A stretch of 64,000 nucleotides of DNA from Chthonomonadales bacterium (GTDB lineage Bacteria > Armatimonadota > Chthonomonadetes > Chthonomonadales > CAJBBX01). Shown in pieces: positions 1,962 through 32,061 of the stretch. Below the pieces are notes generated by a model, which made no database searches, was not told the DNA's origin, and was given only the letters and a program-made list of their open reading frames with translations. The position numbers were made by a program, and so were the translations under genes. The DNA lies in assembly GCA_049967475.1 (NCBI GenBank), contig JBMFSQ010000003.1, forward strand, positions 73,529-137,528. Direction: 5' to 3'. Every line of letters starts with the position of its first letter. Position 1 is the first letter of the stretch.

Positions 1962-2028
1962 TGTGAGCCTCCAAAGAATGGCCCTGCAACCGTTGACTCG
2001 GGCCGAGCGATTTGATAGATTATGACCT

Positions 2029-2919
2029 ATGGAACAGGCGTCCATTGTGCATCTCGTTTTGCTGCTGATGGAAACGCCCGGTGTGGGCCCGCGAGCTGTG
2101 GCATCCGTGCTGCGCCGCGCCGCGGTTCTGCGCACGTGCCCAGAAGCGGTGATGCGCGCACCGCCTACCGTGCTGGCGGAACAGTACGGCCTGGGTCGGA
2201 AGCAAGCCGAGCGCTTTGCACAACTCGCCAGGGAACACAGAACAGTCGTCTGGGACATGGCACGGTGGCTGAGCCGGAACGGCGTGGCCGTGGTGACCTT
2301 GTCCGATGCCAGCTATCCTCAGCGGTTGCTGGGGCACATGGCGGATCCTCCTCCGGTCCTTTTCCTTTACGGGGAAGCGAGCTTGTTGGACGGCACACTC
2401 TTTGCCGTGGCCAATTCCAACAAAGCGCCGGAACCAATGCTGAAGGCGTGCGACCGGGCCGCTGAAGAGGCCAACGACGCCGGCCTCATCCTGGTAACAG
2501 GCCATAACCGCCTCGAATATCAAAGACCTGCCCTCGCTGTGCGCAGGAACGGCGGATCTGTGTGCACGGTGTTGGACCGGGGGCTGGTTCCCGGGTTCGG
2601 AGGCGATCTTACGCGGCCTCTCTTCGCCGCGGCCCGCATCTGGTCTTGTGTGTTCGACGTCCGCAAGGAACTTGCGCTTACCCCCTTTGCGCTCCACGAT
2701 TACGGCATCGGAGCGAACAACCGGAAGCGCGACGAGCTGATCTTCGCCCTGGCCGACGTCATTTATGCAGGCTTCCTTTTGCGCGGCGGCAGGATGGAGT
2801 ACTTCTGCACACAGGCGGCTGCCCGCGGCGCTGTTGTGCGCTATGTTGCGGATGGACCGCCCCGCGGATCGCCGGGGGATGCAAGCGCCCGCGCATCCTT
2901 CCGTGTCCCACCGCAGTAG
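2029..2919 (+). CDS. DprA/SMF-like DNA-processing protein (SLOG fold), divergent
   Basis: N-terminal PGVGP helix-hairpin, SDASYPQRL...DPPPVLFLYG and RKRDELIFALAD motifs. No C-terminal winged helix. Confidence 0.7.
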   Translation: MEQASIVHLVLLLMETPGVGPRAVASVLRRAAVLRTCPEAVMRAPPTVLAEQYGLGRKQAERFAQLAREHRTVVWDMARWLSRNGVAVVTLSDASYPQRLLGHMADPPPVLFLYGEASLLDGTLFAVANSNKAPEPMLKACDRAAEEANDAGLILVTGHNRLEYQRPALAVRRNGGSVCTVLDRGLVPGFGGDLTRPLFAAARIWSCVFDVRKELALTPFALHDYGIGANNRKRDELIFALADVIYAGFLLRGGRMEYFCTQAAARGAVVRYVADGPPRGSPGDASARASFRVPPQ

Positions 2920-2940
2920 CCTACGGAGAAAGGCAAGGCC

Positions 2941-4980
2941 GTGATCGGCACACGACCATTGAAGAAGCGCGCTGGGGAGAATGGCGGCGCAAAGGTGGGT
3001 CGTACGGCCGCGGGCAGTGCCTGGAGGGGCGTAACGCCGCGCGCCATCGCCGTTGCAATCCCGCTGGTAGCGGTGAATTGCTACTGGGTGCTGGAGACGG
3101 AGGGCATCTGGCACTCTAATCATGCCACCGCAATGTCGCTCTTTTGGAACACCACGTTTTTCCTGTTTGCGCTGGTGGTGCTCAATGTCTTCGTGTTGAA
3201 GCGCTTCGTGCCGCGCTTTGCCTTCAATCAAGGGGAGCTGATTACCATTTACGTCTTCATGACGCTGGGATCGGCGCTGGCAGGCCACGATTCGCTTCAA
3301 CTTGGGATTCCAGCGGTGGGCGGTTTCCCAGTGTGGTTCCAGAGCCAGCAGCCGACCCTGGGGTGGGACGCCTTCAACCGCTTCTTCCCCAACTGGGCTA
3401 TGGTGAAGGATCTGGACGTGCTGCGCCCGTACTACGAGGGGCTCGGCACACGCTTCCTGTACACCCGGCACAGCCTCTTGGCGTGGGCGACACCGGTTGC
3501 GTGGTGGTGCGCCTTCATCCTCGCCTTGGGAACCGTAATGATATGCCTCAATGTGTTCATCCGCAAGCAGTGGATGGAGAACGAGAAGCTCTCGTATCCC
3601 ATCGTTCAGCTCCCTATGGCCCTCACCCATGATGGAGGCACTCTCGATTTCTTCAGACAAAAGCCGTATTGGATCGGGTTTATGCTGGGTGCAGGTCTCG
3701 ACGCCTACAACGGCTTGGCCACCCTCTATCCGTCGTTCCCCTTGATCCCGGTGCGCCACGATTACGCGCCCCATAACCTAGGCCAATACTTCACAACCTA
3801 TCCATGGACCGCCGTCGGCGATCTTCCCTTGCCGCTTTATCCATTCATCATTGCTCTGGGGTATTTTCTTCCCCTGGATCTCTCGTTCTCGCTGTGGTTT
3901 TTCTATCTGTTCAAGAAGGGCCTCTTGGTGCTCACGGCTGCCCTGGGCATCGAGCAGACCGGGGCCCACACGTTTCCTTACCTCACAGAACAATCCTTCG
4001 GAGCATGGGCAGCCATCTTTGCCATGGCGGCGTGGACGGCCCGCCACCACCTGGCGGCAGTGTGGCGCAAGATCCTCACGAATGAAGGGTTGGATGACAG
4101 CGCCGAGCCCATGCGGTACCGGACGGCCTTTGTTCTTCTCGTTGCGTCAAGCGCGTTTTTGATCTACTTCTGCCTTCGGGCTGGGATGACGCTCGCGGCC
4201 GTCGTTGCGTGTTTCGGCATCTACTTTTTGATCTCTGTGGGCATCACGCGGATCCGAGCGGAACTGGGCCCTCCCGCCCATGAGATGGCAGGCAATATGA
4301 ACGCGCCCTACCTCATGTCGTTGTTCGCCGGCACTGCAGGAGTGGGGTTGCCCAGCCTTACGATGATGACCATGTTTTGGTGGTTTACAGGCCGGGGGTA
4401 CCGCACACATCCTATGCCGTCCCAGTTGGAAGCATTCAAGATGGCAAGTCAGCCGGGGGTAGATATGCGCGGGCTGGGAGCCGCGATGATGCTCGCCATG
4501 CTGGTGGGCGGCTTCTTCAGTTTTTGGGCAGCGATCCACCTTCAATACAACGCCGGCGTCAACGTGATGACTGCGCACAACTGGGGGCAATTTCATTGGC
4601 TCAAAAGCCAGATAGATGCGCCGCAAACGGCCACGCGCAACCTTGCAGGGCAATACGCCGTAGGGGTAGGCGCGGTGGCGGCTGTGGCGATGATGTGGAT
4701 GCGCACGCGTTTCTTGTGGTGGCCTTTTCACCCCGCCGGATACGCCATCTCTATGACCTTCGGGGCGGAGTACTATTGGAGCTGCCTCCTCATCAGCACA
4801 TTGGTTAAGTTCTTGGTCCTCCGGTATGGCGGGTATCGCCTCAACCGGCGGGTGATGCCGTTCATGTTCGGCTTGATCCTGGGTGAATATCTGGTGGGAG
4901 CAGGGTGGAGCTTCCTTTCGGTGTTGCTGAACAGCGGCCGGTATATCAACATCCGGACGTATGACTTTTGCCCAGGATAA
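2941..4980 (+). CDS. DUF6785/DUF6784-like polytopic membrane protein (putative transporter)
   Basis: 679 aa with many TM segments; motifs RKQWMENEKLSYP, TRIRAELG, WWPFHPAGY, FMFGLILGE. Confidence 0.7.
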   Translation: MIGTRPLKKRAGENGGAKVGRTAAGSAWRGVTPRAIAVAIPLVAVNCYWVLETEGIWHSNHATAMSLFWNTTFFLFALVVLNVFVLKRFVPRFAFNQGELITIYVFMTLGSALAGHDSLQLGIPAVGGFPVWFQSQQPTLGWDAFNRFFPNWAMVKDLDVLRPYYEGLGTRFLYTRHSLLAWATPVAWWCAFILALGTVMICLNVFIRKQWMENEKLSYPIVQLPMALTHDGGTLDFFRQKPYWIGFMLGAGLDAYNGLATLYPSFPLIPVRHDYAPHNLGQYFTTYPWTAVGDLPLPLYPFIIALGYFLPLDLSFSLWFFYLFKKGLLVLTAALGIEQTGAHTFPYLTEQSFGAWAAIFAMAAWTARHHLAAVWRKILTNEGLDDSAEPMRYRTAFVLLVASSAFLIYFCLRAGMTLAAVVACFGIYFLISVGITRIRAELGPPAHEMAGNMNAPYLMSLFAGTAGVGLPSLTMMTMFWWFTGRGYRTHPMPSQLEAFKMASQPGVDMRGLGAAMMLAMLVGGFFSFWAAIHLQYNAGVNVMTAHNWGQFHWLKSQIDAPQTATRNLAGQYAVGVGAVAAVAMMWMRTRFLWWPFHPAGYAISMTFGAEYYWSCLLISTLVKFLVLRYGGYRLNRRVMPFMFGLILGEYLVGAGWSFLSVLLNSGRYINIRTYDFCPG

Positions 4981-5243
4981 AGGGAATCCAGTTGTACAAT
5001 TTATTAAGGAGCAAGGTTCGCTTGTATCGCACGCGTCCGGCATATCATGATCTCATCCGCCGGCTAAGGCTGTTCCGGATGCAAGCACACAGGAGGCTAA
5101 ACAATTTTCATGACCGGGGAAGGAATCCGGGCTATGCATGCAGAAATGGGGAGACGTAAAAGCACTTTAACGTCCGTGTGCGAGGAGCGCACATGCGTGG
5201 GCTTCGCGCCCACAGGGGAACTGTGTGGGGGAGGAGGCGTGCG

Positions 5244-5465
5244 ATGGAAGTGAGCAAGGGTGTGGCGGCAGCCGTGATTGCCCTCGTGATCGCAGTTATC
5301 GCGGCAGTTGGTTACTTCATGTTCCTGAAGCCCAAAGGGCAGCCTTCGGAGCCCGTCAAGAAGATGTATCTGCAGCACGGTCTAGACAAGCCGCAAAACT
5401 ACGGCGCTCCCGGCATGGGAGGCGCACCACAGCCGGGTGGGCCGGGCTCTGGAGGGCCTCAGTGA
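5244..5465 (+). CDS. Small single-TM protein with Pro/Gly-rich tail (73 aa)
   Basis: GAGGAGG SD before ATG 5244; hydrophobic stretch VAAAVIALVIAVIAAVGYFMF. Confidence 0.75.
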   Translation: MEVSKGVAAAVIALVIAVIAAVGYFMFLKPKGQPSEPVKKMYLQHGLDKPQNYGAPGMGGAPQPGGPGSGGPQ

Positions 5466-5573
5466 TTTCGGTTTTGCTGGCCGCAAGGCCATTCCGGCCG
5501 TCGGCGGGCCAGGAGTGGTTTGGGCATAGACGGCTTCTCCAATCTGGAGAGTACTAACGAAAGGAGCAGATGT

Positions 5574-6380
5574 ATGAACGCCAAAGCTCGAGGACCAGGT
5601 TTTACGCTCATCGAATTGCTCGTAGTGATTGCGATCATTGCCATTCTGGCCGCGATCCTCTTCCCGGTCTTTGCCCAGGCCCGGGAGGCAGCCCGGAAGA
5701 GCTCGTGCGCCAGTAACCTCAAGCAGCTTACGCTCGGTTGCTTGATGTACCAATCCGACTATGATGGGCGCATGGTAAACGGGGGGTATGACTGCTGGAG
5801 TGCTGCTCCGGGGTCCGGATGCAGCCAAAACAATCCGCAGCCGACCATCCAGTGGCAGTGGGTGATCTTCCCGTATGTAAGGAACTGGCAGATCTATCGC
5901 TGCCCTACGGACCCGCGCCCCCTGGAGAATACGTTCATCAGCTATTCGATCAATAACTGGGCCAGTGATCCCAGCAACCGGCCAGGCGGGCTCAATGAAG
6001 CCGTATTGGTGCGGCCGGCGGAAACAGCGCTCCTCCAGGAAGGGCTGAATACGGGTTGGGCGGATAACGCGCGGCATGCAGAAGCCTTGAAGATGATCGG
6101 CGACTACACCACATGGACCCAGTGGAACCGCGTAACCCATGACAACCCCGACTGGAACTGGAGCGATCAGTTGCCTCGCCACAACGGTGGAAACAACGTG
6201 TCGTTCCGGGACGGGCACGTGAAGTTCTTCCGCATGGTTCCTTATTGCCAGGCGAATAAAACCACGGGGAATGCCCTCAAGTGGCAGCAGTACATGTCCA
6301 ATGATCGCGCAAAGTGGAACCCCGCGTGGGATTGGGACATGGATTTCGGCGAGCCGAAGCCTGGAAGCGGCTGCCAGTAG
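5574..6380 (+). CDS. Prepilin-type N-terminal cleavage/methylation protein (DUF1559, H-X9-DG)
   Basis: [40 protein letters not shown] and [13 protein letters not shown]; AAGGAG SD before ATG 5574. Confidence 0.92.
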
Positions 6381-16658: not shown

Positions 16659-17456
16659 TCAGGCTTTCTCTCCAAGGTTCCTCTTCATCTCCATGAACGG
16701 AGTCAGCAAGTCAATGGGTACAGGCAGGATCGTCATTGTGGATCGCTCCGATGCGATTTCCCGCATGGATTGAAGGAAGCGAAGTTGTAGAGCCGCCGGT
16801 TGCGTCGCAATCAGAGCGGCTGCCTGAGTGAGCTTCTCGGCCGCCTCGAACTCGCCTTGCGCATTGATTACCTTGGCGCGCCGCTCCCGTTCGCTCTCCG
16901 CTTGGGCGGCCATCGCCCGCTTCATGCTTTCGGGGAGTGCCACGTCCCGCATCTCCACCCCGGTGACCTTTACGCCATAGGGTTCGGTCTGCTCATCTAT
17001 TACGGTCTGCAGCTTCTGGTTGATGCGGTCGCGTTGCGCAAGCAATTCGTCAAGCTCGGCCTGCCCGATGGTACTGCGGAGCGTCGTCTGGGCGATGAGC
17101 GATGTCGTCCGGATATAGTTTTCGATGCGCAGGATGGCTCCTTTGGGATCCACCACCTTGAAAAGGACGATGGCGTCCACGGTTACGGGCACGTTATCCC
17201 GCGTCATCATTTCTTGGCGGGGCACATCCATGGTTACGATGCGCGTGTCTACACGAATGGCGCGGTCGAGGTAGGGCCACAAGATAATGACGCCGGGGCC
17301 GGCGACGTGGTGAAACTTGCCCAGGCGCAGCACCACGGCTCGTTCCCAATCGGGGAGGACTTTGATGGCGGCCGGGAGTATCACCAGCGCCAAAACAATG
17401 AGGATCGCCAGCGGTACACCAATGAACTGCGTTACCAGATCGAACAGCTCTTTCAT
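16659..17456 (-). CDS. SPFH/band-7 (slipin/stomatin) protein
   Basis: ERAVVLRLGK, TRDNVPVTVDA, AQTTLRS, QAESERERRAKVI, ALQLRFLQ. Confidence 0.95.
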   Translation of the reverse strand: MKELFDLVTQFIGVPLAILIVLALVILPAAIKVLPDWERAVVLRLGKFHHVAGPGVIILWPYLDRAIRVDTRIVTMDVPRQEMMTRDNVPVTVDAIVLFKVVDPKGAILRIENYIRTTSLIAQTTLRSTIGQAELDELLAQRDRINQKLQTVIDEQTEPYGVKVTGVEMRDVALPESMKRAMAAQAESERERRAKVINAQGEFEAAEKLTQAAALIATQPAALQLRFLQSMREIASERSTMTILPVPIDLLTPFMEMKRNLGEKA

Positions 17457-17523
17457 CGCGAAGATCTCCATTCTTCTGCAATCGCCTGCCGACCGCTACA
17501 ACCGGGCTTCCCAGACGGATGCC

Positions 17524-18945
17524 TCATTGTTGTGGGAGTTCCTGTTGAGCATATACGGGCTCGGGTTCCAACGCTTCGGCCCGCTCCACACGAAGGGTGA
17601 GGCCGTCCCGTCCAACCACCCGAACGGTATCACCCGAACGCACGGGCTCAGCCCCGGCATTCACAGCTCTCCAAAAAGCGCCGTCGCAAAACACCATGCC
17701 ATGAGGATCCAGGTTCGTGCGTGCGATGCCGGTCTGACCGATGAGGGTCTCGGGTCCGCTTCCCGGCGGCCTCCGGCGCGCGCGGACTAGCGCCGCCAGC
17801 ACGGTGCCGAAGAAAAGCGCTGTCACCAGCGCCAAACTGATGACTACGACCAACGACACTTGCACGCCGGTCTGTGCATCGTTGAAGATCATCAGTGCGC
17901 CTACGATGAAGGAAGCGATGCCGCCCACCGTCAATACGCCATGGGTGGGAGCGTAGAGATCCAGGCCGAACAGGAAGAATGCCAAGAGGATCAATGCCAA
18001 CCCCGCTGCATTGACGGAAAGCACCGACATGGCGTAGAGGGAGAGGATCAATGCAATGGATCCGGCGACACCCGGCACGATGGCTCCCGGATGCTGGATT
18101 TCGGCGATGATGCCGTATAAGGCGACCGCTCCGAGGATCAGAGCGACATTGGGGTTGAGGAGGATCATGAGTAGGGATTGGATCCAGGAAGGCTCTTCAA
18201 CTTCCTCGGCTGCCCCGGTTGTGCGAAGTGTCACCTGGCCGGCGGCCGTGTCCACGCGGCGGCCGTTAATGGCCTGCAGAAGCGCCGCCTGGCTCGGTGC
18301 TATGAGATCGGCGATATGTTGCGTGACGGCTTCGGATGCCGAAAGCGATATGGAGTTGCGAACGAACTGTTCGGCGATCTTGGCACTCTTGTGCCGCCTA
18401 TCCGCCAAGGCCCGGCTAAAGGCAGCCATATCGTTGACCATCTTTGCCTTCATATCGCCGGGAATGTCGCCGCCTGTCATCAACACAGGGTGCGCTGCTC
18501 CGATATTGGTTGCCGGAGCCATGGCAAGAATATTGGCGGCCAAAGCAACGATGGCCCCTGCGGAGGCTGCCTGGGCACCATCCGGTGCGACATAGACCAC
18601 GACGGGAACGCGCGCATTGAGAAAAAGCTGAGCGATGCCCCGCATGGCCTCCGCCTGGCCGCCGGGGGTGTTCATCCGCACCAGCAGACACTGCGCCCCG
18701 GCATCCTCGGCATGCTTCAGAGCATGGGCGATGTAATCACGTGTGGGCGGCATGATGAGGCCGTCAATGGTCGCTCCAACTATCAGGGGGCGTACGCCTT
18801 GGGCTAATGCCTGGCCGAGGGCTGCCTGTTCCGCCGGGCATAGGGTCATTCCGGCACACAGAAGCACCGTCGTGAGCCCACTCGCGCGGGCGCAGAAGCC
18901 GAACCTATGCCTGTTCGTGCGGTGAACAGATGGTGCATGGTTCAT
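17524..18945 (-). CDS. nfeD: NfeD membrane-bound ClpP-class serine protease
   Basis: NTPGG, AASAG, TNIGAAHPV and C-terminal OB fold; canonical pairing with an SPFH gene. Confidence 0.92.
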   Translation of the reverse strand: MNHAPSVHRTNRHRFGFCARASGLTTVLLCAGMTLCPAEQAALGQALAQGVRPLIVGATIDGLIMPPTRDYIAHALKHAEDAGAQCLLVRMNTPGGQAEAMRGIAQLFLNARVPVVVYVAPDGAQAASAGAIVALAANILAMAPATNIGAAHPVLMTGGDIPGDMKAKMVNDMAAFSRALADRRHKSAKIAEQFVRNSISLSASEAVTQHIADLIAPSQAALLQAINGRRVDTAAGQVTLRTTGAAEEVEEPSWIQSLLMILLNPNVALILGAVALYGIIAEIQHPGAIVPGVAGSIALILSLYAMSVLSVNAAGLALILLAFFLFGLDLYAPTHGVLTVGGIASFIVGALMIFNDAQTGVQVSLVVVISLALVTALFFGTVLAALVRARRRPPGSGPETLIGQTGIARTNLDPHGMVFCDGAFWRAVNAGAEPVRSGDTVRVVGRDGLTLRVERAEALEPEPVYAQQELPQQ

Positions 18946-22154: not shown

Positions 22155-23381
22155 TCACGGTGACGATCGGTTGCTCTGGGCGCTTTCTTCGGCTTCGCGG
22201 AGCATCTGAGCGGCATATTGCCTCCATTCGGACGCGGGGTAATCCTCGAGGAACTCCCGCAGTCCATCCGCAGCGCGGTGGTGTGCGTGGAGCCTCCGGA
22301 GGAGCAACACACAGGCACGGAGCGCGGCTGCATCGGAGTTCCAGTGTTTGGCGGCTCGTTGCAGGAGCGCAACGGCCTGTTCGGTGGCGCCTAGCTCTTC
22401 CAGTCCCGAGGCTACAAAAAGGGCTTCTTCATGCGTCAGGCCAAGATCATCACCCGGCAATTGTTCCTGTATCGTGCAGAAAGTCTCGGCAGCGGCTTGA
22501 CGGTTCCCATTGCGCATCCATCCGGCGACGGCGCTACGGTAATGTTCCGCACACTGCTCCCGGTCCCCAGCCACTGCCCAGAGGAGGGCAATCTGCGCGT
22601 GCGCCTGGACGTCGGAAGGGCGCTTGGCAAGGACTTCCTCCCAGCGGCGCAGGGCCGACATAGGCGTTCCGTCGGAGGCAATCTTTGCAGCGTCGGCGCG
22701 GAGGTATGCGGTTTGGCCGTGTGATGGCATTCCAGTCGCGCGCGCCCAGAGGATGCCGAGAATGAAGCCCGCGACATGCCCGGAATGTGCCGCCCAACTC
22801 CCGGCAGCCGCCGACGCCGGACGGACCATCTGCAGCCCTGCAGCTACGACTTCTGCTGCGACGGCGCCGGCCAAAAGTGCAGCGGCAGGTATCCGCACAG
22901 GAAGGCCGATGAAGCGAATGGAAGCTCGGTAGTATCGAACTGCGAACGCACCAACCAGGGCCGCTGCCGCTCCTGAAGCGCCGATGATGGGCATCTCGGC
23001 TGCTGCAGTTCCGGCGATCCTGGCTGCTGCCGCTTGAGCAAGGCCGGAGCCGACGGCCGCTAATCCATAAAGCAAGAGAAAGCGCTGCCAGCCCACGTCC
23101 TCCTCCACGGGCCCGCCGAATACCCAAACGAACAGCATGTTCGCCGAAAGGTGGAACACATCTTCGTGCAGGAGGCAGTAGGTGAGAACGGTTTGGATGC
23201 GGGGCGATGCAGGTACAAGGCTCAACGCAGCAAACCACTGTGTAGGGAGCTCCGGACCTCGCGTCAGGGTAACGGCGGCGATGATGCCGAATACGGTAAA
23301 GTTCGCAAGAATAAGCGCCACGGTCGCCAGCGGCGGCTGTGTGGAGCGAGCATCCGTTGCGTAGGGAAGCAGCATCGCCAA
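22155..23381 (-). CDS. Rhomboid intramembrane serine protease with TPR-like C-terminal domain
   Basis: H...FHLSANM, GASG catalytic Ser, GHVAG catalytic His; helical C-terminus. Confidence 0.88.
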   Translation of the reverse strand: MAMLLPYATDARSTQPPLATVALILANFTVFGIIAAVTLTRGPELPTQWFAALSLVPASPRIQTVLTYCLLHEDVFHLSANMLFVWVFGGPVEEDVGWQRFLLLYGLAAVGSGLAQAAAARIAGTAAAEMPIIGASGAAAALVGAFAVRYYRASIRFIGLPVRIPAAALLAGAVAAEVVAAGLQMVRPASAAAGSWAAHSGHVAGFILGILWARATGMPSHGQTAYLRADAAKIASDGTPMSALRRWEEVLAKRPSDVQAHAQIALLWAVAGDREQCAEHYRSAVAGWMRNGNRQAAAETFCTIQEQLPGDDLGLTHEEALFVASGLEELGATEQAVALLQRAAKHWNSDAAALRACVLLLRRLHAHHRAADGLREFLEDYPASEWRQYAAQMLREAEESAQSNRSSP

Positions 23382-23401: not shown

Positions 23402-24424
23402 CTAAAGGGAAGCCATGCCCTGGTACGCTGCCACAAGGCGATCCACCAGCCCTTTGATCAGCTCATCCGCAGAGACGCCCTCGGCCTCGCCCTCGAAGTT
23501 CAGGATGATGCGGTGCCTCAACGCGGGCTGGGCTGCTTCGGTAACGTCTTCCACGGCGGCATTGAACCGTCCGGCGATCAGGCTGCGCATCTTGGCGGCG
23601 AGCACGAGGGCTTGGGCACCCCTTGGGCTCGATCCGTAACGTACGTATCGTTTTACCGCTTCGGGAGCGATTTCCGCATCCGGGTGGGTCCCGCGCACCA
23701 AACTGAGAGCGTATTCCATCACGTGGGATGCCACCGGAACGCGCCGTGCGAGTTGCCTCATCCGCAAGATAGCGGCACCATCTGCCACGGGGTGCGCGTG
23801 TTGCTCTTGGGTACCCGTCGTACGTTCAACGATCGCCCTCAGCTCTTCTATGCCTGGCGAACGGACAATCAGCTTGAAGAAGAAGCGGTCCAGCTGGGCT
23901 TCCGGGAGGGGATAAGTGCCTTCCATCTCGATGGGGTTCTGCGTCGCCATCACGAAGAAGGGTTCTTGCAGGGGGCGGCGCACCCCGGCAGCAGTGACGG
24001 CGTGCTCTTGCATCGCCTCGAGCATCGCGGACTGGGTTTTGGGGGTTGCCCGGTTGATCTCGTCCGCCAGAATAATCTGCGCAAATACCGGACCCGGCTG
24101 GAAGCGGAATTCCTTTCCGCCCCCGGGCACCTCCACTAAGATGTTGGTTCCGCAAATGTCCGCAGGCATAAGGTCCGGAGTAAATTGGATGCGCGAGAAG
24201 GTAAGGTTCACGGCCTCTGCCAGCGTGCGCACCAGGAGCGTTTTGCCCAATCCCGGCACGCCTTCCAGCAATGCGTGGCCGCCGGCAACCAGGCACGTGA
24301 GGACACCCTCGATCACGTCCTCATGCCCCACGATCACCTTCCGGATCTGCTCGCGTATCGCGTGGTAGCTCCGGCGGAACTCCTCGACCTCGTTTTCGAT
24401 CTCCTGCAGGTCCTGGTCAGTCAA
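23402..24424 (-). CDS. MoxR-family AAA+ ATPase
   Basis: GVPGLGKT, RIQFTPDLMPAD, LADEINR, ATQNPIEMEGTYPLPEAQLDRF; GGAGG before TTG 24424. Confidence 0.95.
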   Translation of the reverse strand: MTDQDLQEIENEVEEFRRSYHAIREQIRKVIVGHEDVIEGVLTCLVAGGHALLEGVPGLGKTLLVRTLAEAVNLTFSRIQFTPDLMPADICGTNILVEVPGGGKEFRFQPGPVFAQIILADEINRATPKTQSAMLEAMQEHAVTAAGVRRPLQEPFFVMATQNPIEMEGTYPLPEAQLDRFFFKLIVRSPGIEELRAIVERTTGTQEQHAHPVADGAAILRMRQLARRVPVASHVMEYALSLVRGTHPDAEIAPEAVKRYVRYGSSPRGAQALVLAAKMRSLIAGRFNAAVEDVTEAAQPALRHRIILNFEGEAEGVSADELIKGLVDRLVAAYQGMASL

Positions 24425-24467: not shown

Positions 24468-26132
24468 TCATGGCCGGATGCGCTCGAAGTAATCGCGAAC
24501 GATGTGCTGCATTTCGGGTGGAATGTTCTCCCGTGACACCGCCCGTTCGGCAGCACGCTTCTGCTCCTGATAAACCTGGTAGTAGGGCGTCCCTGCGCGG
24601 ACGCCCGCATTGGGATCGCCTGTTATCTGTTGTACGAGTTCCGTGTCGTTGGCGTTGAGCTGTCCTTTTACGAGTGCGTTAGGCAGGTGCTTCGGCGGAG
24701 GCGCCCATTGAGCGGCATATCGAGCGAACGTCTTTGCCGCCTGTGTCCGCGTGCTTGCCCGCCCGCCTTTGCCCATGAGCGTAAGGCGCGGTCGGGCGCG
24801 GGGGGTGGCAGCCATGGGATTGGTCTTGACGCCGTGTCCTCCCCAAAGCATACCGGCCCCACCGCCGCCGGCTACGAGGCGCATACGGCCGGATTTGAGC
24901 GCTTCGATGAGCGCGGCAAGCGCCTCCGCATCCAGCGAAGGCCTTCCACAGCTCAGTCAAGTGCCTCCAGCTTGGCGCATCATCTCGGCCAAACGTTGAA
25001 GGGTGCGGGGATCCAGCTTCATGCGTTCCATGAGTTTGGCAATCTCAGCGAGCTGCCCGGCAAGTTGCCGAAGCTGCGTGTCGCTGAGGGCTTGGCTGAT
25101 TTGTTGAAGTTGGCGCTGAAGGCGTGCGATGGACGCAGCCGAGAGTTGACCGCTCTGTGTCAGATCCGCCAAGCGCTGCAGAGCTTCGTTTTGGGCCCGG
25201 GCGTCGCCGCTTCTGAGAGCTTGAAAGAAGCTCTGCATCAGCCTCTCGGCAGAGGCATCGGCTGGATTGGTTCTGCCGGAACGCGCAGCCGCCTGTTCCA
25301 TCTGCCTGCGGGCGAAGGTGCGTGCGAGGTCATCCATCCGTTTCCGCACCGCGGGTGAAGCGGAACCGGCGGCCCGGGCCAACATATCCTGACGCCTGCT
25401 GAGGCGATCCGTGAGCTTCTGAAGGGAGATGAGAGATTGCTTCTTGTCCAGGCTTCCGCGCTTCATCGCTTCGGCAAGCCTCCGCGCTTCAAGGGCGGCT
25501 GTGCGCGTTTCTGCCAATCGGTTACGCGCGGCAGACTGCTCGGCCTGGCGCGCGAGGCGTTCAATGCGCCTCCCTTCGTTGCGCACCTCGGCTGCTTCCT
25601 TCTTCTGCTGGGCGGACCAGAAGACGGGCAGGCTCGGCAGAAACATTGCCGCAACAGCGATGATTGCAAGCACGAGGGCTGCGATGCCTTCCTTCGGAAC
25701 CACAATGGGATAGAGAGTTTTGAGATCGAGTGCGGCTGCTGAAGCTGCGGCGTCGGCTACTTGGCGCAAGACCAGGGGGTCCTGCTGCTCCCGGCTCCCG
25801 AACTCAACAGCCGAGGCGAGCCGGTCTCCGGTTCGGCCGCGCACGTCCAAGAGCCAGGCTACGCGGAAGCTGGTCAGGGGCGTTGCGAAAGCGAAGGCCA
25901 GTCCGGCTGCCATTGCCGACGCAGCGAGGAGCGTCAGAGGCGTTACCGCCGGTTCATGGACGAGGCGCAAATGCGCCGCAATAATCCAAACCAGGCTCAC
26001 GCATGCGGTCCATACTAGGAAGCGGCTTACCCAGCGCAGGCTCATCAAGACGCGGAGGCGGCGCCTGGCCGCCCGGATGGTTGCGCTCAGTTCGGGATGA
26101 ACCCTCATGGTTTGTTGCTCCCTGGACGACAT
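24468..26132 (-). CDS. Membrane-anchored coiled-coil protein with in-frame TGA at codon 392; candidate selenoprotein with UxxC motif (554 aa)
   Basis: The two track ORFs share a frame and read ...RQAGGT-TGA-LSCGRPSLDAEALAALIEALKSGRMRL...; SECIS-like hairpin directly follows; C-terminal ENIPPEMQHIVRDYF resembles the ends of MoxR-operon helical proteins. Confidence 0.75.
24908..24955 (-). promoter_or_regulatory. Candidate bacterial SECIS element
   Basis: mRNA UGAGC-U-GUGG-AAG-GCCUUCGC[UGGAU]GCGGAGGC-G-CUU-G-CCGC-GCUCA, spanning +2 to +49 after the UGA; the apical loop starts at +23 with G second. Confidence 0.7.
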
Positions 26133-26140
26133 GCGGCACC

Positions 26141-27844
26141 TCACGCAGGCTCAGGCGGCTTGCCTCCCCTCCGAAGGGTGGCCACTCCGGCTCGTTCAAT
26201 AACCAGCGGCAGGAAGCCCAAGGCAAAAATCGAGATCACCGTCCAGCCGAGTACGCAGCAAATCCAAGACGGCGGATTGCCGGGAATGAGGTTCAATTGT
26301 TGCAGGAGGCGTCCCTTGGTTTGCGCATCCAGCAATACGACCAACGGGTTGAGATAATAGAGAACGGCTGCCGGCGAACTTGACGGCGTGCTGGACGTGT
26401 ACATCGCCTTCACTTGCCATGCAAACGGCAAAGCAGCCATCAGCCCGGTAACGCCGTACAGAAGAAGCATCGAGGTCCATCGGTTTTTCACGAGAGCCGA
26501 CAGAAGTATCCCTATACACCAGATGCCGAAAATCGCAGCAGCGCACGCGGCGGTTGTTTGCAGACCCACCGACGCCGCCCCATACAGAGATCGTGAGGCC
26601 GTTGCGCCGCTCGCCATGAACGCCCCGCTGACCACAAACAGCAGCAGTTCCCCTGCCAGCAACAGAAGGAGATACGGAAGCGCGGATGAGACGTTCCCCG
26701 CCTTGAGGCCGGCCCATCGCCACCCCTCTGAGAAGTACCGCTTCAGATTGCGGGAACGAACCAGTGGGATTTCTCCTGTGGCAAACATCGGCGCGAAGAA
26801 GAGCAGCGCTCCAAGGGGAAAGAAGAACATAAGGGGCAATGCTCGCAGGCCGGGTGCGAGCGTGCCTGCAACCGTGCCGCCTGTGCCTCCAAGCCCAAAG
26901 AAGAGTGCGGACACGTACCACAAGAGGGCGGATACGAGGCTCCTCAACAGACAAGCCTTTCGTTCCGGATAAAGCTCTAGGCGTGCCGCGGCGACAGCAG
27001 CCAGAGTGGCCACGACGAGGCCGTGCATGGCGATCGCCAAAACCCACCAGGGCACTGCCATGCCATAGAAGGTGAGGGACTGGCCGATCGGAAGGGCGCC
27101 CGGCGGCCCGAATGTCCCGGCTAGTCCGGAAAGATACCCGAGCAGTGTAGGGAGCGCAGTTGATAGAGGGACGAAGACGCTGGTGTAAACAACCGTCGAG
27201 CCGCCGCTCGGCCCACTCATGGCGGTGCTTGCCAGCCACAGAATCAATCCCAGAACGAGCAAGGGCGCCAAGAGGGTTGCATAGGTATAAACGATCGCTG
27301 CTGAGGTATTTCTTGCAACGGAGGACCAAGCCAGAGCAAGCGCTGCCAGATCCAGCCCATACAGGAGCAGGTTCAGATAATCGCGAGCCACCATCCCGGC
27401 ATCCACACCGCCCAAAAGGAAGCACAAGGACACCAGGGGCAGGGACGCCGACAAAAGCAGCATGAGGAAGCCCGCGGCCGAAAGCAGCTTTCCCATCACG
27501 ATATGAACCCGAGGAATGGGCGTTACGGCAAGCAGATCCATCGTGCGCTGCTCTCGTTCCACAGTAAGAGAGGCTGCTGTAACGGCGGGAGCGATGAATA
27601 CGACGAGGAACGCCTGAACCCCGATAAGCATCTGATAGAACCAAACGCCTAACGATCCGACCTCGGAGAAGCCCCCACTCACGCGGGCAGAAGTCCACCA
27701 ACCCAAGTATGAAAGAAACAGGACACTGGAAAGCACTACCAGATAACCCGCCAGCGCCCAATAGGCTCTGGAGCCGCGCATCCGCGTGCGCAGCTCCCGT
27801 ATGAGCACCGGGTTGTCAGCCCAAACGCGCGCTACGCCGTTCAT
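26141..27844 (-). CDS. ABC transporter permease (ABC-2 type, extended)
   Basis: NPVLIRELRTRMRG, EREQRTMDLL..TP, IVMGKL; many TM helices. Confidence 0.88.
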   Translation of the reverse strand: MNGVARVWADNPVLIRELRTRMRGSRAYWALAGYLVVLSSVLFLSYLGWWTSARVSGGFSEVGSLGVWFYQMLIGVQAFLVVFIAPAVTAASLTVEREQRTMDLLAVTPIPRVHIVMGKLLSAAGFLMLLLSASLPLVSLCFLLGGVDAGMVARDYLNLLLYGLDLAALALAWSSVARNTSAAIVYTYATLLAPLLVLGLILWLASTAMSGPSGGSTVVYTSVFVPLSTALPTLLGYLSGLAGTFGPPGALPIGQSLTFYGMAVPWWVLAIAMHGLVVATLAAVAAARLELYPERKACLLRSLVSALLWYVSALFFGLGGTGGTVAGTLAPGLRALPLMFFFPLGALLFFAPMFATGEIPLVRSRNLKRYFSEGWRWAGLKAGNVSSALPYLLLLLAGELLLFVVSGAFMASGATASRSLYGAASVGLQTTAACAAAIFGIWCIGILLSALVKNRWTSMLLLYGVTGLMAALPFAWQVKAMYTSSTPSSSPAAVLYYLNPLVVLLDAQTKGRLLQQLNLIPGNPPSWICCVLGWTVISIFALGFLPLVIERAGVATLRRGGKPPEPA

Positions 27845-28816
27845 TCAGGACACCACTCCCTTGGTGACACGCATAAACACGTCCTCCAGATCGGCGCTCC
27901 GTGCCGCGAAGGACAGCACCTTGATCTCGTTCATCACCAGCGCCTGAAGCACGGCCCACTCGCCATTCGGCGGACCTGCGTAATTGAGGGTGATGACGCC
28001 GTCGCCTTCATGGTGGGCTTCGCCGACGTCGGGCAGGGCCGTGAGGATTTCCATCGCCCGGTCCACGCGGCTGTGGCCGTCGGCTTGGGAGTTCGCCGCC
28101 TCATCGAGAATGCGCAAATCCAGCGTCTGGTGCCCGGCGAGACGCCGCATGATCTCGTCTACGGCTCCGAAGAGAAGCAGCTCCCCTCTTTCGATTATGC
28201 CGATCTTGTTGCAGAAGTCTGCAAGTTCCGGGAGAATGTGGGAAGACACGAGGATCGTCTTGCCCATGTTCCGCAATTCCTTAAGAAGTTCCTTGATCTC
28301 GATGCGGGCCCGCGGGTCCAGCCCCGATGCCGGCTCGTCCAGCAGGAGCACGGCCGGGTCGTGAATGAGTGTCTTGGCAAGGCACAGCCGCTGCTTCATC
28401 CCTCGGGAAAGCGCTTCTACGTACGCCTCCCTCTTGTTTTGGAGGTCCGTGAGGGCAAGGACGTCGTCTATGGCGCGCGGCCGCTTCTCTTTGGGGATGC
28501 GGTAAGCAGCAGCAAAGAAGTCGAGGTATTCCCACACTTTGATGTCGTCATATACTCCGAAGAAGTCGGGCATGTATCCGATCACGGTGCGGACGGCTTC
28601 CGGGTCACCGACGATATCGTGGCCGAGAATGCGCGCCGTGCCCGACGAAGGTACGAGCAGGGTAGCCAGCATCCGGATGGTAGTGGTCTTTCCTGCTCCA
28701 TTGGGCCCGATGAACCCGCAGATGTCGCCAGGCTCCAGAGTGAACGTAAGGTCGCGCACGGCCACAAGGTCCTTATAGCGCTTTGTAAGATGAACAATTT
28801 CTAGTGCCGGAGGCAT
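27845..28816 (-). CDS. ABC transporter ATP-binding protein
   Basis: GPNGAGKTT, LSRGMKQR, LLLDEP, SSH. Confidence 0.95.
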   Translation of the reverse strand: MPPALEIVHLTKRYKDLVAVRDLTFTLEPGDICGFIGPNGAGKTTTIRMLATLLVPSSGTARILGHDIVGDPEAVRTVIGYMPDFFGVYDDIKVWEYLDFFAAAYRIPKEKRPRAIDDVLALTDLQNKREAYVEALSRGMKQRLCLAKTLIHDPAVLLLDEPASGLDPRARIEIKELLKELRNMGKTILVSSHILPELADFCNKIGIIERGELLLFGAVDEIMRRLAGHQTLDLRILDEAANSQADGHSRVDRAMEILTALPDVGEAHHEGDGVITLNYAGPPNGEWAVLQALVMNEIKVLSFAARSADLEDVFMRVTKGVVS

Positions 28817-28926: not shown

Positions 28927-29715
28927 TCATTGCCCCAGATTGGACTGGCGGCGGAAGCCCAGGATCATCCTGGCTACGCATGCGGCCCCTACGCCTCCGT
29001 AAGCGGCAAGATGAAACAGCAATACGGTTTCGGCAGTCCCCAAATGCGACGGAAGTTGGTAAAGAGCTTCCCCGGCCCGAAACGGGCTCAGCCACCATAT
29101 GGGCGTGTCCTGCCAGGCCGCGCCGGATATGGATAGGACGGAGTTGACGGCCGCCACACCGATGATCGGGAGGAAGGTAATCAGGTACGCCACCGCCGTA
29201 GCCACGCGGGAATGGCGGCTGGACCATGAGGCGTACAGACTGGTGGAGATCAAGAAGAAGGCCCAGCACACAAGAAGTGCCAGCCCGACGATCATCTGGG
29301 TCGCCTGAATGTCCGACACCAGCGACGAATAAACGAGGAACGGCAAAAACGCTCCGAAGATCGCGAGCAGAGGTAGGCTGCGAGCGGCGAGCTTGCCCAG
29401 TACGATCTCGTGCGGCGTAAGGGGCGAGCACAGCAGCATATCCCAGGTCTGCTGTTCCCGTTCTTGCGAGATGGCGTTGGCTGCCAGTCCTGGTGCAATC
29501 GTCCAAATGATCACCGCCTGCAGGACGAACGCCATCCACCAGAAGTCCGTCGCGCCCTTGGGCGCAGAGAAAGACACGATGTAGGAGATCGCCTCCCAAT
29601 AGAGCCACGCGATCACTCCGAGGGCCACAAAGCCCATTGCGGCGAGCGTCCTCGGGTGCTGGCGCCCACGGAATTTGGATCGGAGCTCCTTAACGAAGAC
29701 GGGGTTTTCCCACAT
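28927..29715 (-). CDS. ABC transporter permease (ABC-2 type)
   Basis: NPVFVKELRSKFRG, EREQQTWDMLL.SP, IVLGKL. Confidence 0.88.
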   Translation of the reverse strand: MWENPVFVKELRSKFRGRQHPRTLAAMGFVALGVIAWLYWEAISYIVSFSAPKGATDFWWMAFVLQAVIIWTIAPGLAANAISQEREQQTWDMLLCSPLTPHEIVLGKLAARSLPLLAIFGAFLPFLVYSSLVSDIQATQMIVGLALLVCWAFFLISTSLYASWSSRHSRVATAVAYLITFLPIIGVAAVNSVLSISGAAWQDTPIWWLSPFRAGEALYQLPSHLGTAETVLLFHLAAYGGVGAACVARMILGFRRQSNLGQ

Positions 29716-29717
29716 GG

Positions 29718-31958
29718 TTACCGCGATCCTCCTGGCCGTGGGCGTCCGCTCGAGTTGCGAAGGGGTTTCTTGATGCGGCGCAAGGGAGCAGGGGCAAAGG
29801 GATCCCTGCGGCTGTGCGGCGGCAGGCCGATCTGCGGATCCGCACCTGACCTCAATGTGGGAAGGGGCACGTGTATGGCAACGAGCGTTGTGCCGTGCTG
29901 GATGCCGGGTCCCGGCTTTATGGTGAGGCCGATAACCGGCTCGTCGAGCCAGCCCGTAAAAAGGAGTGGATCGGATCCCTCCAATTGCGCGGGATTACTG
30001 GAGATGGCGACTGCCAGCGCCTGCCGGATGCGGTCTTCTTGAAGGCTTGAGGTGCCGCGGGGATAGCTGCCGGAATATTGCGGGGAGGCACCCATGACGG
30101 ATGGCGCAGCGATGGCGATACGGCCCCATGGTTCTGCGGGGGCAACCCGCAGGGAAGCCAGCTTTGTGGAATAGGGTTCCATGGTCCCCAGAAACACAGC
30201 CGACGCGCGGTACGTGACGGCGCAATCCACCAGGCGGTGGGCGGTATTGTTGGTGACGCGAACGGTCCCTGCCCGAATGCCCGGAATGAAAGCGGCATCA
30301 ATCTCACCCCCAAGGTCTGCGTGGCCCACGAGTTCGAAGCTCCGGACGGACCACATTCGGACGCGGACATCACGGACGCCGTGCCCCGGCCCCTCATCCA
30401 CGGCGACATCCTGCGCTTGAATTCCAAATCCGAAGGGCGCGAAGGAGGCGCCTCGAGCGACTGCTTGTGTGTCCGCCGTGGCTAGATCGTACTTTGTTGA
30501 GGCCGGGGAGAAGATGGTGGCGAGGGTGAGAGCGCGAAGAGACCGCTGGCCTGCCGCGCCCTCCAGGATCGTAGCGTAGCTGAGGCGCAAGCTGGACCCG
30601 CGAAGCGCATAACCCACTCCGTAGGCCCCTACAGAAAAGGCCACGACCACGAGCGGCGCCGTGACCCATGCCCATTCGCGCCGATCCTTCCTGCGCAAAA
30701 TCATGTAATTGAGAGGCACGAGGCAAAGGATGTACGCCGCGAGATAGAGCCCAACAAATCCCACCCCAGGTGCGCTCGCAGCCTGATCGCCCGCTAAGGC
30801 ATCCCCCAGCATGCGCAAGGCACCTTGGGGCTCGAAGGATCCCATTGCAAAGGAATTGAGCCCTCGATGCAGTTGCGCTTCCACGATCGCAGAGGCTGAA
30901 AGCTCGGCTTGGCGGAGGCGCAGAAGTTCACGCCAGAGCGCTGGTGCGCCCGGCCATGCGCTGATCTGGCGGGAGGCGAGATCGAAGGTCGTGAAGATGA
31001 CGGTGCCCCGTCCCTCCCGCCGAGCCACGACGAGGGGCACGGCCCCCTGGGTACACACGACCACTGCGTCTGGCCCTAGCGTGCCCGTGACCACCGCTAC
31101 CGGGCTGGAGAGAGAAGGTGCTCGGTATCGGGCTGCGAGTGCGGCAAGGCTGGGGAGTTGGCGCGTTCCTTGCGGCATCATGGGTAACAGGCCGGCGATC
31201 TTGGGATCGCGAAGGCGGCTGATGTCGGGTACTCCCGATATAACGATGGCTCCTCCGTCGCGCACCCACTGGATCAGGGCACTCCACTGAGCGTCTGAGA
31301 GGGCATCCAACGGGATATCGCCCAAAAACACGCAATCGGCTGCACTGTAGGCTTCAGGGCAAGTCGGGAGGGTGAAGGGCTCCGGGTACGCCACGGCGCA
31401 CGGGTATTGCTGCCGGCTGCCGGTTCCTCTCGTGGTGAACTGCACGGAAAGAAGCGCTGTGGATGGCTGGTGCGGCAACCCCAGATCCGCTCGATGGAGG
31501 TAGCCGAGGCCGCTGCGATCCCGGGTGAGCGCTACGATCAACGGCTGGAAGGGGCTCAGGGTCTGCACCGCAGGAAGTTTCTGATCTGCCAGAACATGCC
31601 CTTGCGCCACGAGGCGAACCCGCGCTTCGTCCAGACGTGCATCTTCGTCGGCGAAGTAGGCCAACGGGACGCGCTCGTTGAGAACACCGGCGTGTAAATC
31701 CACGGACCGCATGAACGTAGTGGTGCCCGAATTGGGCTCGGATGCGGGGAAAAGCAACTGGCACTGTGCCTGTGTGGTGACACCCGTGCCTTTAACGGTA
31801 ATGAGTGCGGGCGACCAGGAACCGGCCCTCACGAAGCGGTCGAAGCCGATGAATGCATCCACGGTTAGATCGGCCCGGCAGGGGAGCGCAGTCAGGATCA
31901 GGCCTGCCAAAAGACGCGCTGCAATGAAGACGGCCTTTTGCCCCGTGTAACGGTGCAT
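29718..31958 (-). CDS. Large exported membrane protein with class I glutamine-amidotransferase-like domain
   Basis: Signal peptide ending LPCRA; DCVFLGD...LSDAQWSALIQWVRDGGAIVISG; two central TM helices. Start uncertain. Confidence 0.7.
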   Translation of the reverse strand: MHRYTGQKAVFIAARLLAGLILTALPCRADLTVDAFIGFDRFVRAGSWSPALITVKGTGVTTQAQCQLLFPASEPNSGTTTFMRSVDLHAGVLNERVPLAYFADEDARLDEARVRLVAQGHVLADQKLPAVQTLSPFQPLIVALTRDRSGLGYLHRADLGLPHQPSTALLSVQFTTRGTGSRQQYPCAVAYPEPFTLPTCPEAYSAADCVFLGDIPLDALSDAQWSALIQWVRDGGAIVISGVPDISRLRDPKIAGLLPMMPQGTRQLPSLAALAARYRAPSLSSPVAVVTGTLGPDAVVVCTQGAVPLVVARREGRGTVIFTTFDLASRQISAWPGAPALWRELLRLRQAELSASAIVEAQLHRGLNSFAMGSFEPQGALRMLGDALAGDQAASAPGVGFVGLYLAAYILCLVPLNYMILRRKDRREWAWVTAPLVVVAFSVGAYGVGYALRGSSLRLSYATILEGAAGQRSLRALTLATIFSPASTKYDLATADTQAVARGASFAPFGFGIQAQDVAVDEGPGHGVRDVRVRMWSVRSFELVGHADLGGEIDAAFIPGIRAGTVRVTNNTAHRLVDCAVTYRASAVFLGTMEPYSTKLASLRVAPAEPWGRIAIAAPSVMGASPQYSGSYPRGTSSLQEDRIRQALAVAISSNPAQLEGSDPLLFTGWLDEPVIGLTIKPGPGIQHGTTLVAIHVPLPTLRSGADPQIGLPPHSRRDPFAPAPLRRIKKPLRNSSGRPRPGGSR

Positions 31959-32061
31959 GGTCTTGTATGCCCTACAGGAGGCCGGATGCGCATTATCGGC
32001 ACATCCCACCCATTGCCCCGGTCCCGCGGTGTTCGCCGACCGCCGGAATGACTGCGGCCCG

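Follow-up and report, generated by a model that had tools for sequence, protein, structure and literature searches.

A 64,000-nucleotide (nt) stretch of a Chthonomonadales bacterium genome (contig JBMFSQ010000003.1, positions 73,529 to 137,528; hereafter the window) carries on its minus strand a gene whose reading frame is crossed by a single TGA. We consider it very likely that this in-frame TGA is a genuine selenocysteine (Sec, U) codon in a membrane-anchored protein of about 546-558 amino acids (aa). We favor this reading because conservation extends over the recoded frame, the position alternates between Sec and Cys, a downstream hairpin keeps its location, and the Sec machinery is present. 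On the evidence of the sequences, the gene is rated as a bacterial selenoprotein with a coding-region selenocysteine insertion sequence (SECIS) in a new protein family. The central elements are the following:

24468..26144, minus strand: whole read-through gene, with terminal stop TGA at 24470-24468; homologs are full length in one frame
24957..24959, minus strand: proposed Sec codon, an in-frame TGA after a conserved Gly-Gly-Thr; TGA stands in the same column in 33 loci
24948..24950, minus strand: TGT Cys codon at U+3, candidate partner thiol of a U-x-x-C motif, from the translation and the homolog alignment
24922..24942, minus strand: upper stem-loop with an 8-bp stem and the loop UGGAU; perfect-stem energy -13.8 kcal/mol, also found by RNAalifold
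24898..24965, minus strand: extended hairpin from RNAfold, in which the UGA is part of the lower stem; this stem lacks conservation

The minus-strand frame from 26144 to 24468 has the TGA at 24959-24957 as its sole interruption. This is evident from the list of open reading frames (ORFs), in which 24957..26144 (395 aa) and 24468..24884 (138 aa) share one frame, and from a translation with TGA read as U, which gives a single protein, ...RQAGGT-U-LSCGRPSLDAEALAALIEALKSGRMRL..., with one internal TGA. An earlier note, made from the letters of the window, had described two ORFs of one frame split by this TGA and a downstream ATG at 24884 without a Shine-Dalgarno (SD) sequence. Both observations hold: no purine-rich SD precedes ATG 24884 in the window sequence. 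There is also no in-frame ATG, GTG or TTG over the 24 codons between the TGA and ATG 24884.

Translation could begin at GTG 26144 (558 aa, U396), ATG 26132 (554 aa, U392) or ATG 26108 (546 aa, U384). The last of these has AGGGAG 9 nt upstream and coincides with the start of the database gene call P0002. The length of 554 aa with Sec at residue 392, as given earlier, is right for ATG 26132, but the numbering shifts with the start chosen. The TGA stop of the upstream permease gene overlaps GTG 26144 (GTGA, 26141-26144). This overlap would fit translational coupling if GTG 26144 is the start, with ATG 26108 as the alternative. Reassignment of TGA in the genetic code was rejected because the read-through gene and the upstream permease both use TGA as their normal stop.

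Homologs from the window's own order were collected by a six-frame search of 41 related genomes. The protein was found in 22, and five of these (G000, G001, G005, G012 and G015, representing five genera of family f1) carry one in-frame TGA. A metagenome scan yielded three loci, two with the TGA; the third (L061, 26% identity) was left out. In a 32-row alignment, the column holds TGA in seven rows, Cys in eight (G003, G004, G008, G017, G027, G050, G037 and P0003), another residue in 15 and a gap in two. The seven own-order Sec forms are 37-46% identical to the window protein over its whole length and keep the pattern AGGT-U-[LM]-x-x-G...SLDA...LAAL...K. The UxxC motif named in the earlier note is present here, with Cys at U+3, but it is not universal. 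The partner Cys lies at +3 in five of the seven forms and at +6 in the other two, and across subfamilies it is found at +3, +6 or +10.

The TGA recurs across the phylum. A profile of five Sec forms was searched against 401 genomes at E <= 1e-15 and matched 199 of them; among the matches listed (61 are unlisted), at least 31 have one TGA inside the match. We inspected 25 TGA loci of this phylum sample and left out G389 and G077, which are likewise recorded with one TGA. All 25 show a single TGA after [AS]G[GA][TG], followed by 113-186 homologous residues. In total, 34 TGA codons were verified in 33 loci, from 31 genomes and two metagenome contigs, and at least 11 families contain a verified TGA (f1, f4, f5, f7, f14, f15, f16, f20, f23, f34 and f43). 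The expectation that homologs would have Cys or TGA at this column and continue in frame is borne out in both the own-order and the phylum-level alignments.

Cys also stands at the TGA column in L088, one of the phylum-level loci. The homolog in G118, from genus g54, has Cys (...KACRS-C-QQAGACALDARQW); ten Sec forms (...KAGGT-U-LSAGACALDARQW) come from this genus as well. A quick tree places the G118 homolog as sister to the Sec-bearing G236 with a Shimodaira-Hasegawa-like approximate likelihood ratio test (SH-aLRT) support of 100. The tree shows only that deeply separated branches contain Sec forms and that some of the Sec/Cys switches are recent; its rows L082-L108 were picked for a TGA or as top matches, and no frequencies are taken from it. 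Among 153 family representatives, 30 have Cys at the profile column, where the alignment is unreliable for distant coiled-coil members.

The ratio of nonsynonymous to synonymous substitution rates (dN/dS) after the TGA is 0.14-0.81 in all 21 pairs compared, similar to that of the 120 codons before the TGA. These are rough values with dS mostly saturated. Judged by them, the downstream frame is under purifying selection.

One homolog carries the motif twice. In G403 (L087, G403:C75), two tandem units, ...KHEPGGT-U-NSPGGT-U-EGAG..., lie around residues 490 and 497, and each TGA has its own downstream hairpin (loops GAGA and GGC). This homolog was listed without a stop in the phylum search since the match ended ahead of its TGAs. 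It is a possible double selenoprotein. For two further homologs (G047:C63:240739-241665 and G346:C57:5546-6628), the search records a single in-frame stop that is TAA and not TGA; they probably represent a gene that is split or broken, or else two matches lying side by side.

The genome encodes the machinery for Sec insertion. Its tRNA-Sec scores 68.8 bits against a 47-bit cut-off and is called tRNA-SeC with the anticodon TCA by ARAGORN. SelA (E = 2e-137), SelB (359 bits, above the cut-off) and SelD (348 bits) are also encoded, so the profile matches and ARAGORN supply all four components (selA, selB, selD and tRNA-Sec) that the earlier note had named. The SelD gene contains a TGA of its own, in frame at the canonical ...GCTG-U-VSK... 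site and followed by hairpins. About 59 kb ahead of the window, the same contig carries the genes for SelA, SelD and tRNA-Sec in a cluster (G000:C3:12276-14779; L001, L009, L042). When scored at E <= 1e-40, SelA is present in 218 of the 401 sampled genomes and in 33 of 33 TGA-bearing genomes checked (31 listed with a TGA, plus G403 and G005). This co-occurrence is a consistency check and carries no P-value because related genomes are not independent. Some genomes with Cys or another residue at the column (G004, G032, G037 and G062) have no strong SelA match.

Downstream of the UGA, the RNA is predicted to fold into a stable hairpin. RNAfold of 24965..24898 gives -37.2 kcal/mol (z = -3.84), and 0 of 200 shuffled sequences are as good. 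The apical loop UGGAU begins about 22-23 nt after the UGA and no U-tract follows, which agrees with the earlier description of a hairpin of about 20 bp with a UGGAU loop at +23. Over the seven own-order sequences, 72% of this whole structure is paired, and the lower pairs are often broken. We claim only the upper stem-loop because the lower stem is not conserved in the seven-sequence alignment. RNAalifold on the own-order Sec set recovers the same 8-bp upper stem and UGGAU loop. Of the upper-stem cells in these loci, 85.7% are paired; sliding the 3' partner by 1-3 columns lowers this to 34-54%. The segment TCGCTGGATGCG is invariant in 7/7 own-order Sec loci, and its codons TCG CTG GAT GCG (S-L-D-A) are identical to the letter in all seven. 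In non-Sec relatives, the L-D-A codons vary (TTG/ATG/CTG, GAT/GAC and GCC/GCT/GCA).

Other subfamilies have a hairpin at the same spacing in different letters. Genus g54 has GCGCGC-UGGAU-GCGCGC, and families f20, f23, f43 and f7 have GC(A/G)CUG-GGU-CAGUGC, which codes for A-L-G-Q-C. The retention of the hairpin between subfamilies, despite changed bases and residues, is a stronger argument than its conservation within the order. The earlier note had made its proposal depend on conservation of the hairpin in TGA-bearing homologs, and this is what the alignments indicate: the position is kept, and between subfamilies the sequence changes with pairing retained.

PMC13188914 describes a bacterial SECIS (bSECIS) model with a loop of 3-9 nt, an upper stem of 4-16 bp, a G in the first two loop positions, a spacing of 16-37 nt and a minimum free energy (MFE) of at most -7.5 kcal/mol. 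The window hairpin conforms to it, with the loop UGGAU, 8 bp, 22 nt and -13.8 kcal/mol. We enumerated perfect-stem hairpins explicitly under these constraints. Hairpins pass at 31 of the 34 in-frame TGAs, and the best one lies 19-23 nt after the UGA in 34/34. At the aligned codon, none of seven Cys forms and none of 14 other homologs pass (0/21 for non-TGA forms in total). Control TGA stops, taken from ORFs of at least 300 codons in this genome, pass in 7.3% of 1321 cases, or in 1.6% if a spacing of 19-24 nt is required.

Public gene calls split the gene, as the earlier note had expected of standard annotation. The call P0002 ends after 383 aa here, and the G012 locus is represented by P0008 (403 aa, ...QAGGT) and P0156 (141 aa), both NCBI-sourced. 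The names of the cluster members were not informative. A profile search of 1.84 billion protein representatives returned 136 at E <= 1e-30. Among the best 150 representatives, 22 end exactly in 'GGT' and six more in a near variant, whereas the frequency of GGT is 0.0006 per residue. This count is safer than the tally of Cys at the column for distant members. The short proteins P0064 and P0135 start just past the TGA column, and no full-length Sec form is among the representative-database matches. The GGT endings and short downstream calls, together with the lack of a full-length form in that database, indicate that standard annotation splits the gene.

The same search brought up a subfamily of truncated calls (P0061, P0084, P0088 and P0093) that ends in H-x-H-T-x-E-C-L-[QK]-P-G-G-T, resembling a metal site. 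Another call, P0020, ends in ...GNCSGGT about 30 residues past the usual column. A unit of GGT and stop thus seems able to sit at different positions of the helical arm described below.

The read-through protein matches 0 Pfam or NCBIfam families at E <= 0.01, and none at E <= 5 for Pfam. The Cys form P0003 yields only sub-threshold coiled-coil matches in Pfam and NCBIfam. Weak matches in Pfam, NCBIfam, PADLOC and PDB (SMC, BrxC, JetC, ZorA and designed helical proteins) were rejected as compositional. The remark in the earlier note that this is no known selenoprotein family is upheld by the absence of a Pfam or NCBIfam match. New selenoprotein families are still found regularly.

We compared the protein with published catalogs. 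Table 1 of PMC13188914, a 2026 review, tabulates 119 prokaryotic selenoprotein families and subfamilies, each with a domain identifier, and has no entry describing a MoxR-linked coiled-coil membrane protein. No match was found to the catalog models searched, those from Pfam and NCBIfam/TIGRFAM; a few catalog entries rest on cd or PTHR identifiers instead. The words 'transmembrane', 'coiled', 'MoxR', 'Armatimonad' and 'Planctomyc' are absent from PMC13188914. BSepDB describes itself as covering families reported earlier and holds 111, and the nine new deep-Sep families are different proteins. The comparison also draws on PMC12013277 and PMC13326102. We found no published link between a selenoprotein and MoxR, or between selenocysteine and DUF58, BatA or aerotolerance, and no published account of a protein like this one, in a comparison that did not extend to the supplementary deep-Sep and BSepDB family lists.

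Three other explanations of the TGA were weighed. It is very unlikely that the locus consists of two genes, with the TGA as a true stop that arose through an ancient gene split at what had been a Cys codon, and with a piece of 138-160 aa made by re-initiation. The public calls do divide the locus in this way (P0002, P0008 with P0156, P0064 and P0135), and in G012 an ATG stands right after the TGA. In the window, however, the 24 codons after the TGA offer no in-frame start and ATG 24884 has no SD. The residues of the gap (LSCG..SLDAEALAAL) show conservation and can be aligned to Cys-form proteins that run through without a break, and the start positions differ between subfamilies. A fission would also leave unexplained both the position-specific hairpin (31/34 versus 7% of ordinary stops) and the presence of SelA in 33/33 TGA genomes.

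We regard as very unlikely a selenium-free read-through, in which the hairpin would promote near-cognate decoding of the UGA as Trp or Cys, or the UGA would be decoded in some other way. Structured RNA after a stop can favor read-through, and sequence data alone cannot tell Sec from another residue at this position. However, the column alternates specifically with Cys in close relatives, the classic Sec/Cys pattern, and all TGA-bearing genomes checked have SelA. TGA is also the normal stop of the gene and of its neighbor, and the loop and spacing fit the bSECIS model in PMC13188914.

An inconsequential change of TGC or TGT to TGA, in a pseudogene or through an assembly error, would need only one base, but it has next to no probability and is refuted for practical purposes, given the same TGA in 33 independently assembled loci (37-46% identical within the order and far more divergent phylum-wide), which also settles the assembly error considered in the earlier note, and purifying selection downstream in 21/21 pairs.

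Several points weigh against decoding as selenocysteine or against parts of the case for it. Just two of the eight upper-stem pairs show two-sided changes, and 6 of 500 shuffles matched the observed covariation score, a measure that is inflated by relatedness. Within the order, the top of the hairpin overlaps the conserved S-L-D-A codons, and its conservation is partly due to the protein. The hairpins of G005 and L060 need a one-base bulge, their perfect stem being only 4 bp (-4.1 kcal/mol). With MFE structures alone, 22 of 34 TGAs pass versus 93 of 600 controls; this check under-calls because alternative registers win the MFE, and it was therefore replaced by the enumeration with the same controls. 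The dS values are saturated in most pairs, and the phylum-level loci were picked for the presence of a TGA, which leaves the tree uninformative on frequencies. The ATG directly after the TGA in G012 is also compatible with a coupled second gene there. Gene neighborhood, motif chemistry and a simple count (hydropathy and the positive-inside rule) are all that the functional part of the proposal, set out below, draws on.

The protein has a predicted membrane-embedded N-terminal part, and its gene lies within a conserved neighborhood. The features outside the Sec region are:

25974..26030, minus strand: hydrophobic segment 1, residues 27-45 counted from ATG 26108 (hydropathy scan)
25881..25937, minus strand: hydrophobic segment 2, residues 58-76 from ATG 26108 (hydropathy scan)
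25629..25685, minus strand: hydrophobic segment 3, residues 142-160 from ATG 26108, followed by a long helical arm (hydropathy scan)
24471..24620, minus strand: C-terminal module G-D-P...P-Y-Y...E-N-I-P...V-x-x-Y-F-x-x-I-x-P, with invariant P, V, Y and F
27845..28816, minus strand: ABC transporter ATPase (DrrA/GldA-like)
26141..27844, minus strand: ABC-2-type permease of 567 aa, upstream, whose TGA stop overlaps GTG 26144; syntenic in relatives
23402..24415, minus strand: MoxR-type AAA+ ATPase directly downstream, with a likely start at TTG 24415 after GGAGGA; syntenic in relatives
22155..23381, minus strand: rhomboid-domain membrane protease with a long C-terminal extension, after MoxR

Three hydrophobic segments are found by the hydropathy scan in most of 33 family members. 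The 15 residues ahead of segment 1 contain 3-7 Lys or Arg, the short loop between segments 1 and 2 contains 0-3, and a domain of about 65 aa precedes segment 3. From this simple positive-inside count, we infer a cytoplasmic location for the N-terminus and for the middle domain (about 65 aa), with everything after segment 3 outside. Besides the long helical arm, the predicted outside part would comprise the Sec loop, a stretch rich in Gly and the C-terminal P-Y-Y...E-N-I-P...Y-F module. This architecture resembles that of DUF4175/TIGR02302-type proteins, which combine N-terminal membrane helices with a long low-complexity region outside; the likeness lies in the two or three N-terminal membrane helices, the low-complexity region rich in Gln and Gly, and the conservation of the C-terminal end. 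Membership was rejected because hmmscan matched neither model, with the Pfam search extended to E <= 5.

The order permease, read-through gene and MoxR, often with the rhomboid protease, recurs in most related loci with enough flanking sequence. Just upstream of the operon in the window are a second ABC-2 permease (28927-29715, minus strand) and a 763-aa protein (29718-32009, minus strand) with a sub-threshold DUF7408 match only; both may belong to the same operon. Elsewhere in the window, an NfeD-family membrane protease lies beside an SPFH/Band-7 protein (16659-18945, minus strand), an ordinary pairing that is unrelated.

A related protein occurs in Niallia hominis (Bacillota). The match was the only one in a scan of genome contigs with the single protein, and it covers the C-terminal 39 residues. 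The 518-aa protein there has the same three-helix coiled-coil architecture and the C-terminal module (L058, NZ_JBBMFN010000001.1, 24-6116), and no Sec or Cys motif was seen in it. Its operon encodes an ABC ATPase, an ABC-2 permease, the 518-aa protein, MoxR, DUF58 and BatA-vWA. On account of this locus, the family is taken to be a MoxR-system component that reaches beyond the phylum, into Bacillota.

We propose that the UGA at 24959-24957 would be read as selenocysteine by SelB and Sec-tRNA(Sec), recruited by the hairpin with a G-containing apical loop that starts 22 nt after the UGA. The protein would start in the cytoplasm with a K/R-rich N-terminus, enter the membrane as a hairpin of two helices, form a cytoplasmic domain of about 65 aa and cross the membrane with a third helix, after which the long helical arm would project outside the cytoplasm. 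Between two helices of the arm, the loop GGT-U-x-x-C and its nearby Cys could form a selenenylsulfide redox center or bind a soft metal. It is quite possible, if somewhat short of probable, that a redox or metal site on the extracytoplasmic arm works with the MoxR/ABC-2 machinery. If translation ended at the UGA, a membrane stub of 383 aa would result. Such a stub is expected as a by-product, since Sec decoding competes with termination, and the supply of selenium should therefore set the ratio of stub to full-length protein.

A more far-reaching proposal, which we hold to be doubtful, is that the GGT-U loop is the working center of a hitherto unrecognized arm that handles redox chemistry or metals outside the cytoplasm, as part of a membrane machine with MoxR, ABC-2 and rhomboid components. 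If true, the protein would be the first selenoprotein component of Bat-like 'aerotolerance' systems, and the machine would be switched by the selenium supply from truncated to full-length and back, given the stub left by termination at the UGA.

The Sec assignment has practical consequences of its own. It would identify a selenoprotein family that has been systematically missed, as NCBI- and JGI-sourced calls end at 'GGT' and are followed by a second small ORF. With a family model flagged for Sec, many records could be corrected, and the selenoproteomes known from these lineages would grow. In a MoxR-linked family without a known domain, the Sec/Cys position points to the residue probably responsible for the chemistry and offers a handle for mutagenesis. 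Related MoxR systems also lack a clear function.

The gene resembles MoxR/DUF58/BatA-vWA operons in its place directly upstream of MoxR, and the Niallia locus adds DUF58 and BatA-vWA to this likeness. It differs in that the protein is neither a vWA nor a DUF58 protein and in that MoxR is followed by the rhomboid protease in the window. The operon in the window lacks DUF58 and vWA partners, which follow MoxR in the Niallia locus alone; no search for them was made elsewhere in the genome. A role in oxidative stress has been proposed for Bat (Bacteroides aerotolerance-type) proteins, according to PMC3557215.

The orphan UxxC/UGSC-type families in PMC13188914 (such as the UGSC-containing protein and the hypothetical proteins GOS_C, DG, DW and DF) are likewise predicted from Sec/Cys pairs plus a SECIS, and they share with our protein a short Sec motif, a nearby Cys and an unassigned function. 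They have NCBIfam or Pfam models in that source, whereas the read-through protein matches none. With three predicted membrane helices and a long coiled-coil arm, it is also a large protein and neither a small nor a thioredoxin-like domain.

Genes with a coding-region SECIS, for which fdhF of Escherichia coli is the model case, are similar in having a UGA with a hairpin immediately downstream, Cys homologs and selA, selB, selD and tRNA-Sec. With the bSECIS consensus in PMC13188914, the gene shares the G in the first two loop positions (UGGAU here and GGU elsewhere) and a spacing of 19-23 nt, within 16-37 nt. It differs from the coding-region SECIS genes in that the protein is unrelated to the catalogued families and in that the loop and stem are family-specific and lie in a helical region that does not look enzymatic. 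Most catalogued selenoproteins of known fold are thioredoxin-like, according to the same review (PMC13188914). For a long coiled-coil membrane protein, a Sec residue in an interhelical loop would be unusual. On the more far-reaching proposal above, the modular nature of GGT-U (the tandem units of G403, P0020 and the subfamily with H-x-H-T-x-E-C-L-x-P-G-G-T and stop) would point to a new class of non-thioredoxin Sec motif.

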